Below, piece by piece: positions 35,545-62,418 of a stretch of DNA of 64,000 nt (position 1 is the stretch's first letter; each line of letters begins with the position of its first letter). The position numbers were made by a program, and so were the translations under genes. The stretch is from Orbicella franksi (taxonomy: Eukaryota): positions 5,704,001 through 5,768,000 of the forward strand of contig OZ116698.1 of NCBI GenBank assembly GCA_964199315.1. Direction: 5' to 3'. The notes beneath the pieces are model-generated. The model had not been told where the DNA came from, did not search any database, and saw only the letters and a program-made list of their open reading frames with translations.

Positions 35545-37020
35545 CTACCAAGGGTTAGAGCTACTTGTGGTTTCCTCCCTAGGGTTAATGTCATTAATAC
35601 AACATTCCACTAAACGTCTGTGCTGACAATCAGGATTCGCACATGTGGTGACATGGGGGCAGTTCTGGTTTCTGAGTAGGTGCTTACAGCGTGGATTTCC
35701 ACAACGAATTAAGCGACGATTGGGTGCTTGATTTAGTGGTGCTTGATTTATTGGTTCATCCTCTAGCCATTCTTCACTGTCACTGTATTCAGGACTAGTG
35801 TTAGAGCTACTTGGGGAAGGATGAGTGATGTTGTTTGCATTCCTTGATGTTGTTGTGGGTGAACTGACAGTCGCAGTTGATGATGATGTGACTGTGACAG
35901 TGATTGCTGATGTTGGAGGTGGACTGACTGCTTGTGGGGGGGTGTTTGTCGGTGTTGTTTGTGGTGATCGGTCACTGTCTTCAGCAGGGGGAGGACTATT
36001 TGCTCTTAAATCGGAGACGTCGTCATCATCTTCCATGTCAAATGGATTGTTTTCTTGTCCGATTACTGTATGAGGAGCGGGAATGATTAAGGGTTCCCCA
36101 TGCGTGTCTCTTGCTCTTCCATCATCTGTATAAAAGGATGCTCTTAGTGATGTTGCTCCAAAGGACAAAAGAACTGGAGTTGGAATGAGTCTGGAGCGAC
36201 GACTGTTGGTGAATAAACTACGATTTGTTTCTTGAAGCGCTTGGAATATGTTACGTTCCACTACTGAGCCAGTGTAGGGGGTGTCTTCTGGATATGGAGT
36301 AATACTATGGTTTTGCGTGATCTGGATTTCTTGTACACTCACATCATTCTCTCCGATTTGATTTGGATCCGTTACAAAGATGAATTGATACTTTATGAAA
36401 CTTAGACATAATTCTAGAGCTGAAGGAATCATTCTTTCAAATATCTTGTAAATTGCAATTCTATAATTGTAAACCCAAAATAATTGACCTATTACATTGG
36501 CATGCATGTAAATACCATGAAAAGGAGAATTATGATCTCTTTGTGTTAATATGAAACTTTTCATTCTTTCTAAGAATTCATTAAAAACTTCAGAAGAAAT
36601 ATATGGAAATGCTCTCCAACTTAAATTACTTCTTGTATGTATGATACTTGCTCTTCTTGAGATCAGGAATAAATTGATGGCTGTTATACTGTCAGAGCGA
36701 CGAGCACGTAGGGTTAATTCTTCTAGGGTTAGTGAACCGCCACGTCTTCGATGACCAACAACTCTTGAACATCGTGTACGTGAAGGTATTGCGCAACAGT
36801 TTCCACACATCCTCGTTTCATTCCTTAATCTTCGGTAACAAGACTTGTGTAAATACCTTTCGCAGCATGTTTGCCTTTTACAGGCTAAAATTTCATTTGT
36901 AAGAATGTCTTCTAGACAAATGAAGCACCGATCTAATTCTTCTTCAGGTGGAATATTGAGTTGTCTCAAACTACGTCTTACTTGCGACATGTTTGTAGTA
37001 GAGTGAGCGAGTATTTTCAT
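35545..37020 (-). CDS. Viral accessory protein, 491 aa: N-terminal RING-like finger, Ser/Thr/Pro-rich region, C-terminal Cys cluster
   Basis: CFIC...CCERYLHKSC...CGNC; C-terminal CGNPRC...CPHVTTCANPDC.H...CC. Confidence 0.75.
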   Translation of the reverse strand: MKILAHSTTNMSQVRRSLRQLNIPPEEELDRCFICLEDILTNEILACKRQTCCERYLHKSCYRRLRNETRMCGNCCAIPSRTRCSRVVGHRRRGGSLTLEELTLRARRSDSITAINLFLISRRASIIHTRSNLSWRAFPYISSEVFNEFLERMKSFILTQRDHNSPFHGIYMHANVIGQLFWVYNYRIAIYKIFERMIPSALELCLSFIKYQFIFVTDPNQIGENDVSVQEIQITQNHSITPYPEDTPYTGSVVERNIFQALQETNRSLFTNSRRSRLIPTPVLLSFGATSLRASFYTDDGRARDTHGEPLIIPAPHTVIGQENNPFDMEDDDDVSDLRANSPPPAEDSDRSPQTTPTNTPPQAVSPPPTSAITVTVTSSSTATVSSPTTTSRNANNITHPSPSSSNTSPEYSDSEEWLEDEPINQAPLNQAPNRRLIRCGNPRCKHLLRNQNCPHVTTCANPDCQHRRLVECCINDINPREETTSSSNPW

Positions 37021-37075
37021 TTTGAGTCATTTTATATTGTTTGTTTGTGTTTCTAAAAATAAAAATGACAAAAGG

Positions 37076-37092
37076 GGGGATGGGGGTATCCC
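37076..37092. promoter_or_regulatory. Candidate viral divergent-promoter motif, copy 1
   Basis: GGGGATGGGGGTATCCC, identical at 62634-62650. Both copies lie between divergent ORFs and have TGAGTCA upstream. Confidence 0.45.
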
Positions 37093-37126
37093 TCCTGAAT
37101 GAATGTTTTAAAAATGTGTTTACGTT

Positions 37127-37375
37127 TTGGATTTGTTGAGTTCTCATTTGTTATTTGAGGAACGAGATGCATATGTGATGGCTCCTCCTAGAGCATGTTC
37201 AGAGACCATGGCTGACTATTTTCGTTTTAGTCGTTTAGTGGATGACGAGGAATCACGTTTTGGATACAAGTTGAAGAGAATCAGTTTTATGAGGGAAAAG
37301 TTTAAAGAGGACGAAAAGATGTTGGCTAATCTACGAGTGAGGGAGGAATTTTTTGAAAGCATTGGAATCTATTGA
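37127..37375 (+). CDS. Small viral hypothetical protein
   Basis: 82-aa ORF overlapping the next ORF; start uncertain. Confidence 0.45.
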   Translation: MDLLSSHLLFEERDAYVMAPPRACSETMADYFRFSRLVDDEESRFGYKLKRISFMREKFKEDEKMLANLRVREEFFESIGIY

Positions 37376-37565
37376 CAGGATCAGACATTCTTTGAACAAA
37401 ATCTACGATGCAATTATGGGGCATGAAGATTTATTTGTGATCGACGATGATGGAGAGACCATTCGACCAGATGATTGGATTCAGAGGGGAATTCACATAC
37501 AATGTAAAGCGGAGAACAATTTAAACTTCATTGATTACCGCATCAAAAGACTTTATTTGATTTGA
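37353..37565 (+). CDS. Small viral hypothetical protein
   Basis: 70-aa ORF in the compact array; start uncertain. Confidence 0.45.
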   Translation: MKALESIDRIRHSLNKIYDAIMGHEDLFVIDDDGETIRPDDWIQRGIHIQCKAENNLNFIDYRIKRLYLI

Positions 37566-37589
37566 TTTAACATTTTGAAAGTGTGACAA

Positions 37590-38144
37590 TCATATGTCAT
37601 ATAACCATCTCCAGAAAGCGTGACACTCTTGAACGGAACAGTGACCTTTTCTGTGACTTTTTCTACAAACACTACGATGAAAACCACAACTTTTTATCTT
37701 AGGTATCGTGTTTAAATGATCATATTTAGGACAGCTGATTAATTCTAAATTAAAACTTGGAATGTTCAGTTCGTCGAGGATGTCTTTTTCGACTCATCCA
37801 CCTTTGTATGCAAGCAATGTTCTTTTTCCTGTACAGTATTTGGAATAAAGTCTCTGTATTACGTCACATACTCTGTCTTGACTTAAGGCTTCTTCTTTAG
37901 AGTCTGGTTCGTACGGGAGACCACAAATCCAGTTGTTCACGTGTTTGACTGTTTTTCTGTCTTGAATCCAAAGGTTTCTGTAGGGTATGCCAGTGTCAAA
38001 GGCTATCCTCCCGTAGTCGCAGTCGTGTGTACAGTATCCAAGTTCTCGCACATAAAAAGTTCCTCTAAGTGAATTTCCTTTTAAATTGTAACCATCTAAG
38101 TCTAATATGAAACAAACTTGTTCTCTTACTTTTTGCTTTTGCAT
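37590..38144 (-). pseudogene. DEDD/RNase H-fold nuclease-like viral protein with a Cys/His tail; one in-frame TGA
   Basis: FILDLDGY...FYVRELGY. Reading through the TGA at 37794-37796 gives VEKDILDELNIPSFNLE..CPKY...CGFH...HC...FWRW. Confidence 0.55.
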
Positions 38145-38174
38145 GATGTTTGAGCTCTGCTCGCTTCTTGCGTC

Positions 38175-60953: not shown

Positions 60954-60983
60954 GTCTATTTTTTATTGATCCCATAATGTAAG

Positions 60984-61205
60984 TTACACATTGTTATTAA
61001 ATGAGTTCAACACTGCATTAAAAAAACCTGCTTGTTCAAAAAACTGTTTTAGTGTGACCTCTTTTTTCATTTCAACCTTATCATAAAGAAAATTAGGATT
61101 ACCTAATGCTGCACCTTTCGGATAACCTTTCAGATATTTATCGTCTGCAGTTACGACCCCGACAAATTCTATACATTGTTCACATTTTTGATTACAAGTT
61201 CTCAC
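60984..61205 (-). CDS. Small viral hypothetical protein
   Basis: 73-aa ATG ORF, convergent with PLA2. Confidence 0.45.
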   Translation of the reverse strand: MRTCNQKCEQCIEFVGVVTADDKYLKGYPKGAALGNPNFLYDKVEMKKEVTLKQFFEQAGFFNAVLNSFNNNV

Positions 61206-61217
61206 TATAGCAGGTCT

Positions 61218-61775
61218 TTATTTACAAGAATCATCGACATCCATTTCTAAAAGTTCACTTAAAAAGTGAAAAACCGGATGAACTCCACCATTTTTTTGTC
61301 TTAATAGATATCTCGATTTCATCTCTCGTAGCATGGGTAAAATGTAACCCAAAGATAATCTACAAGCAATATCTTCCCAATCACCTGTCTCCTCTTCAGG
61401 TAAATCAAACAGAAAAAACAAACTCACATTGTAAATTCTATTACTAGTTTCACTTATAGCTAGAAGAGGATTGTCATTCTTCTTCAAAGCTTTTCTTACA
61501 CCCTTTCTTTCCAACCTTGTTATAGTAGGCGGTCTTGGATTCTTATACAAATCATAATGTCTCAAAAACGTTTTCTCAATTAACTTTGCTTGTTCAGGAG
61601 TAAATTTTTCGGTTCTTTTAACACTTTCTAAAACTTGAAGACGGTTTTTACAAACTGGACACATTGTACATAGGTCAATACACATTTCATGAATAGATGA
61701 AAAACAACATCCTGTACAATGCATTTTATCATCTTCAGCTGTAGAACTTTTTTTACAAACAATACAAGGTTCCAT
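61218..61775 (-). CDS. RING-like protein with a C-terminal helical domain
   Basis: CIVC...CCFSSIHEMC...CPVC. Confidence 0.7.
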   Translation of the reverse strand: MEPCIVCKKSSTAEDDKMHCTGCCFSSIHEMCIDLCTMCPVCKNRLQVLESVKRTEKFTPEQAKLIEKTFLRHYDLYKNPRPPTITRLERKGVRKALKKNDNPLLAISETSNRIYNVSLFFLFDLPEEETGDWEDIACRLSLGYILPMLREMKSRYLLRQKNGGVHPVFHFLSELLEMDVDDSCK

Positions 61776-62019
61776 CTAAAAATCAAAAATAAGAATTAAT
61801 GACAGTTGATTTCAAATGATATCGGTCATTTCATAACTTCTATTCATTTTTGTTTCACAGGGCATATTTAACTGTCTTGCCGCAAAACAAACGAGAAAAT
61901 ATCATCTGGTGAACGCAATACTATCCACAAATGTCAATAGGGTCAAATAAAAATCAGACAAACAGTTCTCTTTCTCGCTCTCCAACCAAAAATCGACAAT
62001 CTGTCTCAGTCTATTTAGT

Positions 62020-62220
62020 TCATTCCATTTTTTGTCGAGTAGCATACCTCTCCTTCAAATCAGTGTACAAGAAGTAAAATACGTATCCAGCAACTCCCCA
62101 GAAGAATACGGTTCGAGGTGTAGCCTCACCTGTGAGTCTGACAATAATTGGTAAATAAAGAATGTTAATCTTCAGTTCACTCGTACTCGGTCCAGTTCGT
62201 AGCAAGGTCAATTCTATCAT
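62020..62220 (-). CDS. Small protein with one predicted TM helix
   Basis: VFFWGVAGYVFYFLY hydrophobic segment. Confidence 0.4.
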   Translation of the reverse strand: MIELTLLRTGPSTSELKINILYLPIIVRLTGEATPRTVFFWGVAGYVFYFLYTDLKERYATRQKME

Positions 62221-62232
62221 TCTTCGTTGATG

Positions 62233-62418
62233 TTAACAACCAATTTTCTCTTCACCAAAACGTAGGCATTCACAAACTGGACACCTTCTGTTATTAAAAG
62301 GTAAATTTCTCTGTTTGTCGAGTTTACAGGACCAATGAAATACGCTCTCGCAACACTTACTCCTGTAAAAACATCCCAGACTCGCATTAACCCTCTCATG
62401 ACAAATGCTACATTTCAT
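62233..62418 (-). CDS. Minimal RING-like protein, 61 aa
   Basis: CSIC...CCESVFHWSC...CPVC. Confidence 0.65.
   Translation of the reverse strand: MKCSICHERVNASLGCFYRSKCCESVFHWSCKLDKQRNLPFNNRRCPVCECLRFGEEKIGC

Follow-up and report, generated by a model that had tools for sequence, protein, structure and literature searches.

A candidate nucleosome-docked ubiquitin ligase within an old set of variant RING genes of coral Polintons

A 64,000-nucleotide stretch of the genome of the coral Orbicella franksi (GenBank assembly GCA_964199315.1, contig OZ116698.1, positions 5,704,001 to 5,768,000; hereafter the window) carries a Polinton/Maverick element in which four genes encode zinc fingers with the signature CC-x4-H-x2-C. 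These finger genes are an old, selected, multi-lineage accessory-gene set of coral Polintons, and their fingers resemble the RING domain with a variant ligand pattern. The largest of the four, designated lineage A, combines its RING with an upstream arginine motif of the kind by which HMGN and Dsup bind nucleosomes. Judged from sequence features, the proposal that lineage A is a nucleosome-docked ubiquitin ligase (E3) within this set stands at about even chances.

A six-frame scan of the window returned five CC-x4-H-x2-C matches, all on the minus strand and spanning 36838 to 62463 (Table 1). In 100 shuffles of 2-base blocks the motif turned up 0.04 times on average and never more than once, which rules out a chance origin, and the host flank (window positions 1-35000) contained no match. 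An earlier reading made without database searches (the sequence-only reading) had quoted four of these motifs as an exact shared signature on the strand opposite to the structural genes. All four were located, each with a CxxC before and a CxxC after it, and the integrase, protease, ATPase, PLA2 and polymerase genes are indeed on the plus strand. The count of four holds for the genes and not for the fingers, as CCRKVFHHRC had been overlooked. This fifth finger is in frame with the open reading frame (ORF) at 62233, with one TGA between them. A sister element has one open two-finger frame of 97 amino acids (aa) where the window has a 61-aa ORF, and the latter is thus a broken fragment, the rear part of a gene of about 97 aa that is interrupted by a stop in this copy; it was rejected as a genuine minimal gene. 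The large ORF is extended by low-complexity sequence (residues ~260-491), and most of its relatives measure 221-276 aa. The 185-aa ORF is shortened in the window copy: five of eight aligned relatives have 245-267 aa (full gene about 265 aa), and the remaining three are likewise short (137, 138 and 196 aa).

The four genes represent separate lineages, termed A (491 aa here), B (185 aa), C (81 aa) and D (two-finger). In an alignment of 21 fingers the CC-x4-H spacing was present throughout and eight zinc-ligand columns, forming four pairs, were invariant; in lineage D, seven ligand pairs serve two fingers. Compared with the PDB, the profile pooled from all 21 fingers had RING-H2 domains in the top 22 places and its first PHD finger at rank 23, and zf-RING_2 was matched by 13 of the 21. 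All 44 PDB matches of the lineage A profile were RING-class by name, with no PHD among them (best Pirh2, E=2.8e-7), and the top five matches of the lineage B profile were all RING-H2. The fold ranking of the AlphaFold model of lineage C was led by APC11 (Z 6.2), NSE1 (6.0) and PHF7 (5.4), and VIN3 was the sole PHD-titled entry besides PHF7 among its top 50 matches. The finger in the lineage A model ranked ZNRF1 first (Z 4.9), and finger 2 of lineage D matched zf-RING_2 at E=2e-5. For the B protein, an ESM model was of low quality (predicted template modelling score 0.21).

A hallmark of the PHD finger is a tryptophan (aromatic) two residues before the seventh ligand, Cys7. No Trp occupied this position in 66 unique in-genome fingers, and Phe was found there in 5 of 28 lineage A fingers. 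When the fingers were aligned to Pirh2 and Arkadia, the second Cys of the vicinal pair fell on RING Cys3 and no conserved His was found at ligand 4, which suggests that the first Cys of the pair takes the place of His-4. The finger is thus apparently derived from RING-H2 by this replacement. We consider a RING fold very probable for lineages A and B and probable for lineage C; for lineage D the balance tips somewhat towards it. The sequence-only reading had named profiles and predicted structures as the means of separating RING from PHD, and these gave a clear answer for A and B, a mixed one for C and a weak one for D. Its idea of an in-element family of C4HC3-type fingers is borne out, RING-like rather than PHD-like.

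The arginine motif sets lineage A apart from the other fingers. A large protein library held 260 lineage A clusters at 50% identity, 150 of which were retrieved, and the motif was counted in the 55 homologues with sufficient upstream sequence. R-[RQ]-S-x-R-L occurred in 31 of the 55 (shuffle mean 0.06), including RRSxRL in 23. The looser RxSxR was found in 46, at a distance to Cys1 of exactly 19 residues in 36 and of 17-22 residues in all 46. In the coral genome itself, 26 of 27 lineage A fingers carried the motif, and it was found in none of the B, C and D fingers with enough upstream sequence (0/5, 0/13 and 0/4). A 44-row lineage A alignment (23% mean identity) had the motif Ser invariant and two Arg and the Leu conserved at 90% or above, like the zinc ligands. 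In HMGN (RRSARLSA), Dsup (RRSSRLTS) and Dot5 (RRSARIAT), motifs of this kind use their arginines to bind the acidic patch of the nucleosome (PMC12487698, PMC13347269, both in part). Whether the lineage A motif would dock there too is, on this resemblance, an evenly balanced question; the fixed spacing between motif and RING matches the requirement of a nucleosome-docked ligase. The C-terminal domain of about 140 aa, with conserved H, W, R, Y, P and F, is likely to bind a substrate or partner. Sequence comparison with the PDB gave nothing for this domain at E<=10, and there was no consistent Pfam match, no BFVD match at E<=0.001 and no fold match at Z>=5, with a weak Rid/FtsZ-C alpha/beta arrangement at most.

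The Arg that follows the last RING Cys acts as a linchpin (PMC6465349, in part). In lineage A, this Arg was present in 37 of 48 homologues, Arg or Lys was present in 27 of 28 in-genome fingers, and the position that contacts the ubiquitin-conjugating enzyme (E2), two residues after Cys1, was I, F or V in 55 of 55 database homologues. The corresponding residues of lineage B were Val (9/9), Pro (9/9) and K/R (8/9). With these E2-contact and linchpin residues, lineages A and B have the look of functional E3s, and E3 activity is likely for the two; for lineage A taken separately, we rate it as reasonably probable. In lineage C, the E2-contact position is Trp or Phe in 20 of 21 and CP..K is kept in 19-20 of 21, and in finger 2 of lineage D the linchpin position is Glu or His. 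By these residues, C and D look atypical as E3s. The E3 role suggested earlier by analogy with viral ligases is thus partly supported, for A and B, for which the predicted E2-contact and linchpin residues make it likely. The accompanying notion that the minimal fingers may be E2 decoys found no positive support; an adaptor or mimic fits C and D better, since a decoy should retain the E2 surface.

The finger lineages are spread across the Polintons of this 497-Mb genome, with 115 matches for A, 15 for B, 75 for C and 6 for D, and a single-finger form of D, aligning with its finger 2, has 66 further matches. Co-occurrence was counted around 138 of 140 protease matches after second pieces of one locus had been removed (2 protease, 12 A and 1 B rows, together with 2 cross-hits from D), and all the resulting counts are lower bounds. 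At least 93 of the 138 loci had one or more finger genes within 16 kb, at least 71 had two or more lineages nearby, at least 44 had three or more, and at least 3 had all four. At the other 45 loci (for example C12:20138194 and C7:753142) no finger gene was detected within 16 kb; finger-free Polinton families may lack the genes or may carry diverged or intron-split forms. Related elements from several Polinton families had 2-4 lineages each. Gene positions differ between families: lineage A is at the left end of the window element but adjoins pol in the largest family, and lineage C lies between protease and ATPase here and behind the GRF gene in other families. Lineages A-C are under purifying selection, with median pairwise ratios of nonsynonymous to synonymous substitution of 0.47 for A (93 pairs), 0.32 for B (16) and 0.48 for C (152), the pairs being non-independent. 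Recent duplication within this one element was rejected, and the expansion inside this virus that had been suggested earlier is not supported, because the lineages are old and common to other families at different positions.

A tree of 55 rows (35 viral fingers, 19 host RINGs and 1 PHD; 52 columns) was built with 11 of 30 host RING loci left out as incomplete fingers or duplicates. Host RINGs stood apart from the viral fingers at 90/80 and deeper forks were not resolved; a single origin of the viral fingers was not rejected (approximately unbiased test, p-AU 0.24). Common ancestry of the four finger lineages is likely from these comparisons but short of proven, because profile probabilities between lineages are low and the tree has 52 columns. 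The C-terminal domains of A and B are unrelated to one another (P=0.1%). In a wider search, scanning IMG/VR viral contigs with lineage C gave no relative among 47 pattern matches, and the best ESM Atlas scores were 0.89-0.90, as leads, with small viral RING proteins as the nearest clusters.

Lineage A also occurs outside complete elements. Non-autonomous Polinton derivatives of 6-7.6 kb (L071:1719-8539, L072:1919-8765, L076, L078 and L069, on C10, C1, C11, C8 and C7 of genome G000) have terminal inverted repeats (TIRs) of ~1.4-2 kb that are 96-100% alike, a lineage A RING gene in each arm, the packaging ATPase at the centre and AGTAGT termini. The L071 mini-element has a perfect 6-bp target duplication. 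In total, 28 lineage A matches sit in close pairs of the mini-element type, and in several of the mini-element copies a stop lies close to where the gene begins. Within the L072 mini-element, positions 5597-6970 form a long GC-rich repeat tract of low complexity, which varies in size between copies and is open in several frames, with readings rich in Pro, Gly/Cys, His or Val. Among the distant homologues of lineage A, many (P0110-P0153, P0058-P0145) are RING-only or C-domain-only pieces. Some such pieces stop at a possible splice donor, which suggests an intron in other Polinton groups.

Signals upstream of the finger genes suggest that they lie in leftward, spliced units, an arrangement that resembles the early units of adenoviruses. 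A pyrimidine-AG acceptor pattern directly precedes the start in 11 of 11 copies of lineage B and in 20 of 22 of lineage C; 2 of the element's 30 ORF starts have it, and the rate for all ATGs is 3.5-7%. A GT(A/G)AGT donor pattern directly precedes the lineage D start. In the window, the predicted donor is at 62538 and the predicted acceptors precede 61775 and 52538. In several Polinton families, an GGGGATACCCCCATCCCC element precedes both lineage A and the D/pol region. For expression, four RNA runs were aligned to window positions 51000-64000; two of these were flat and DNA-like, and the raw-read run gave 4 reads. The highest polyA assembly depth, about 40-135, lies over small plus-strand ORFs at 56548-60981 and possibly reflects transcription of a related copy.

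From these features, the following mechanism is proposed. The N-terminal arginines of lineage A would dock on the H2A-H2B acidic patch in the fashion of HMGN and Dsup, and the RING, about 19 residues downstream of this anchor, would activate E2~ubiquitin, so that a histone or a nucleosome-bound silencing factor becomes ubiquitinated. Lineage A would in this way likely tag host or viral chromatin with ubiquitin, which may help the element to remain expressed or to become reactivated. Under this scheme, lineage B would act as another E3, directed by a substrate domain of its own, and the products of C and D, expressed from leftward spliced transcripts of early type, may serve as small RING adaptors or modulators. 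In its full form, the proposal is that an HMGN-type anchor joined at constant spacing to a new vicinal-CC RING writes site-specific histone ubiquitin or removes a silencing factor, that up to three further RINGs form a ubiquitin-control module with it, and that lineage A is kept even in the terminal repeats of mini-elements. We put this full form forward tentatively, as a possibility.

Several results weigh against this interpretation. Fold scores for the A and C models were middling (Z 4-6, with a predicted local distance difference test score of 59 for A and 64 for C), and a Foldseek search of the models gave no match at E<=0.001. The lineage C sequence profile lies nearer to PHD (PHF8, E=0.0026, versus DTX2, 0.34), and the lineage D profile had weak ePHD-type matches only (E>=0.098). 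Profile-profile comparison between lineages gave probabilities of 9-40%, with the alignment limited to the finger. In lineage A, the residue after Cys7 is Gly or Ala in 44 of 48 instead of the usual Pro, and the window copy lacks both the motif Leu and a basic linchpin residue. The pattern R[RQ]SxR is also present in 2 other of the 31 ORFs of the element, and the basic motif could therefore be a localisation or phosphorylation signal. Finally, the RNA data did not support expression or splicing: the four runs contained no splice joints at the finger genes in the region aligned, so that the splicing model is drawn from sequence signals only, and polyA assembly depth over the B and D genes was 3-8, compared with 40-50 over parts of 56.6-60.9 kb.

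The nucleosome-docked reading has to be weighed against others. All of the genes might encode conventional viral RING E3s of the ICP0 or p28 kind, with soluble proteins of the host defence as the targets of degradation, the basic motif being just a nuclear localisation signal (NLS) or a phosphorylation signal. The kinship with RING-H2 and the E2-side residues fit such enzymes, viral RING E3s are common, the nearest ESM clusters consist of small viral RING proteins, and the lineage A C-terminal domain could select any substrate. However, the invariant Ser, the conserved Leu and the fixed 17-22-residue spacing to the RING exceed the needs of an NLS, and we consider this explanation rather unlikely. 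Degradation of host defence proteins had been proposed in the sequence-only reading; it gained no positive support, and the strongest clue in the sequence directs attention to chromatin.

Two further explanations turn on lineages C and D. The arenavirus Z protein is a non-catalytic RING-fold interaction module, and the coral fingers could be modules of this or the PACR type, with C and D as dominant-negative mimics of host RINGs or E2 decoys. Lineage C, which has no substrate domain, an aromatic residue at the E2-contact position and APC11, tied with NSE1, as its top fold match, would suit this role, as would the unusual linchpin position of lineage D finger 2, and poxvirus PACR is a precedent for a small RING mimic. 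Against it are the CP..K retained in lineage C and the catalytic-type residues retained in A and B, and the loss of E2-contact residues speaks against the decoy version specifically; we judge the interaction-module explanation as a whole distinctly unlikely. It is very improbable, in our view, that C and D are PHD-like readers of histone tails whose CC-x4-H signature is partly convergent. Their sequence profiles do put PHD fingers first, the tree places its sole PHD outgroup, a long branch, amid the C/D fingers, and the profile probabilities between lineages are low, but the 66 in-genome fingers lack the Trp before Cys7, the lineage C model and lineage D finger 2 match RINGs, and one origin of the viral fingers was not rejected.

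The element that carries the genes is identified as an endogenous Polinton/Maverick by its AG...CT ends (AGTAGT termini) with TIRs of ~190-200 bp at 91% identity, a 6-bp target duplication that has a single mismatch, and genes for a protein-primed DNA polymerase (pPolB), rve integrase, protease and packaging ATPase. This copy is defective, since two long interspersed nuclear elements (LINEs) split the putative capsid gene and the ATPase gene. The capsid label is given by position and size; as regards the double jelly-roll major capsid protein of Polintons, a 460-aa relative had no sequence match in Pfam or PDB. Beside lineage A, at 37794-38918 on the minus strand, are a GRF zinc-finger gene (PF06839) and a split gene, both kept across Polinton families; we take the latter to have a DEDD-exonuclease-like start. 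The host flank contains a DNA transposon-like element at 17416-22391, with 90-bp inverted repeats (92%) and a 731-aa protein that combines SAP, YqaJ and two PHD-like fingers. It also contains, at 25783-32000, a degraded long terminal repeat retrotransposon with ~300-bp direct repeats spaced 5864 bases apart, presumably BEL/Pao-like from its gag/pol text.

Table 1. Coordinates of the Polinton, its finger genes and associated features in the window
Feature	Position	Strand	Basis
Endogenous Polinton/Maverick	35312-64000; right end 3080 bases beyond window (L011:3080)	.	termini, TIR, gene set
Left terminal inverted repeat	35312-35504	+	TIR comparison
Lineage A gene, 491 aa: RRSLR motif, RING, ~140-aa alpha/beta domain, low-complexity tail	35545-37020	-	ORF, alignments, model
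Lineage A conserved C-terminal domain	36241-36729	-	alignment
Finger A, CFIC..CC-x4-H-x2-C..CGNC	36781-36936	-	motif scan, profile
CCERYLHKSC	36838-36867	-	motif scan
HMGN/Dsup-like arginine motif, RRSLRQL here; predicted acidic-patch anchor	36958-36978	-	homologue alignment, motif comparison
GGGGATACCCC(C)ATCCCC-type upstream element, variant copy, common to 62.6-kb promoter region	37066-37095	-	sequence; family occurrences
rve integrase	42172-42981	+	PF00665 E=1e-10
L1-like LINE insertion in putative major capsid gene	45589-51090	+	RVT_1 + zf-RVT; missing from C4 sister
Adenain-type protease	51697-52272	+	PF00770 E=4e-4, below Pfam cut-off
Lineage C gene: RING-only protein of 81 aa whose tail has a conserved NFGxP; signal like a splice acceptor immediately before ATG	52293-52538	-	ORF, model
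CCGSWYHFGC	52407-52436	-	motif scan
Packaging ATPase, split by second LINE	52621-53073	+	Pox_A32 E=3e-4, below Pfam cut-off
Reverse transcriptase LINE insertion	53074-55374	-	domain match; sister comparison
PLA2-like gene	60672-60953	+	PF08398 E=1e-11
Lineage B gene, RING + helical domain, ends early here; acceptor TAG directly before ATG	61218-61775	-	ORF, alignment
CCFSSIHEMC	61680-61709	-	motif scan
Lineage D gene, two CC-x4-H-x2-C fingers, TGA-interrupted here; GTAAGT donor-like site before ATG	62233-62529	-	sister comparison
CCESVFHWSC	62326-62355	-	motif scan
CCRKVFHHRC	62434-62463	-	motif scan
Region with putative promoter and leader for leftward transcription: GGGGATACCCCCATCCCC element, TGACGT, CACGTG, TGACTCA, TATA-like run, donor	62530-62680	-	conserved in three sisters; function inferred
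Protein-primed DNA polymerase (pPolB), N-terminal part	62736-64000	+	continuation in L011 matches PF03175

Among known systems, the fingers are most like RING-H2 E3s (Pirh2, Arkadia/RNF165, EL5, AMFR, RNF126), which gave the best profile matches and share the CxxC..C..H-x2-C..CxxC spacing and, with lineages A and B, the hydrophobic E2-contact residue and linchpin Arg. Unlike RING-H2 (C3H2C3), the coral fingers lack His at ligand 4 and have an invariant extra Cys directly before Cys3, and they differ further in the Gly that replaces Pro in lineage A and in partner domains without a known match. The PHF7 RING (PDB 8jwj) and the C4HC3 RINGs of NSE1, FANCL and LTN1 stood high in both fold rankings and have His at ligand 5, but their spacing and domain context are different and the likeness seen is one of fold. 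RING-CH/MARCH fingers (viral K3, M153R) have C-x-C-x7-H where the coral fingers have CC-x4-H, and K3 was matched only at E=0.024-0.46. Herpesvirus ICP0 is a viral RING E3, and like it, poxvirus p28, MARCH/K3 and PACR, the coral proteins are virus-encoded RING accessory proteins; they depart from these in ligand pattern and in the presence of several lineages in a ~24-kb element, and no KilA-N domain, as in p28, was found in a Pfam scan of the window ORFs. PACR itself is a small APC11-like poxvirus inhibitor (PMC3185573, in part). The finger set would thus appear to work like a viral RING E3 set while falling outside RING-H2, RING-CH and PHD by the residues that define those classes.

For lineage A, the relevant cellular comparison is with RNF168, RING1B and BRCA1, RINGs that dock on the acidic patch and ubiquitinate fixed H2A lysines. 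A RING is coupled to acidic-patch arginines in RNF168, RING1B/BMI1 and BRCA1/BARD1, and for lineage A such coupling is only proposed; their basic surface forms part of the RING body or adjoins it, whereas lineage A has a linear HMGN-type motif ~19 residues N-terminal to it. With HMGN, Dsup and Dot5 it shares an R-R-S-x-R-L core with three arginines, but this predicted anchor is linked to a RING, within a protein of viral origin, and often has Gln at position 2.

Adintovirus 'Oncoid' genes are CXXC-containing accessory genes upstream of PolB that are defined by Rb-binding motifs (Starrett 2021, PMC8502044, in part), and lineages B and D likewise sit upstream of PolB. RING is not mentioned in the portions of the main text and supplement of that account that were covered. 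The start of the first finger of lineage D, LICLE (62490-62520), itself fits LxCxE, and some published Oncoid calls near PolB might for this reason be RING starts. The main text of a coral polintovirus survey, its gene tables lying outside this scope, has no mention of ubiquitin or RING fingers in the parts covered (PMC11131425); a bioRxiv survey of animal viruses mentions, in part-text, CTCF-like 'Ziftr' genes only, and a protist preprint, also in part-text, lists RING finger clusters in polinton-like viruses and virophages. A literature search that covered neither subscription papers nor Repbase found no description of a RING expansion in Polintons or adintoviruses, in keeping with the remark of the sequence-only reading that none was known, and no paper joining 'polinto' with 'acidic patch' or any for RRSxRL.

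How Polintons switch between integration and activity and how they handle host silencing is described as unknown, and most of their accessory genes as unannotated (PMC11131425, in part). A multi-lineage RING set present in most coral elements offers a first concrete candidate for counter-defence. The acidic-patch binders LANA, IE1 and Gag are tethers, not ligases, in the reviewed cases (PMC9040877, in part). If the proposal for lineage A is true, viruses would have a chromatin writer of a new kind, an E3 anchored to the acidic patch by an HMGN-like motif, and the range of the HMGN motif would be widened past vertebrates, tardigrades and yeast.

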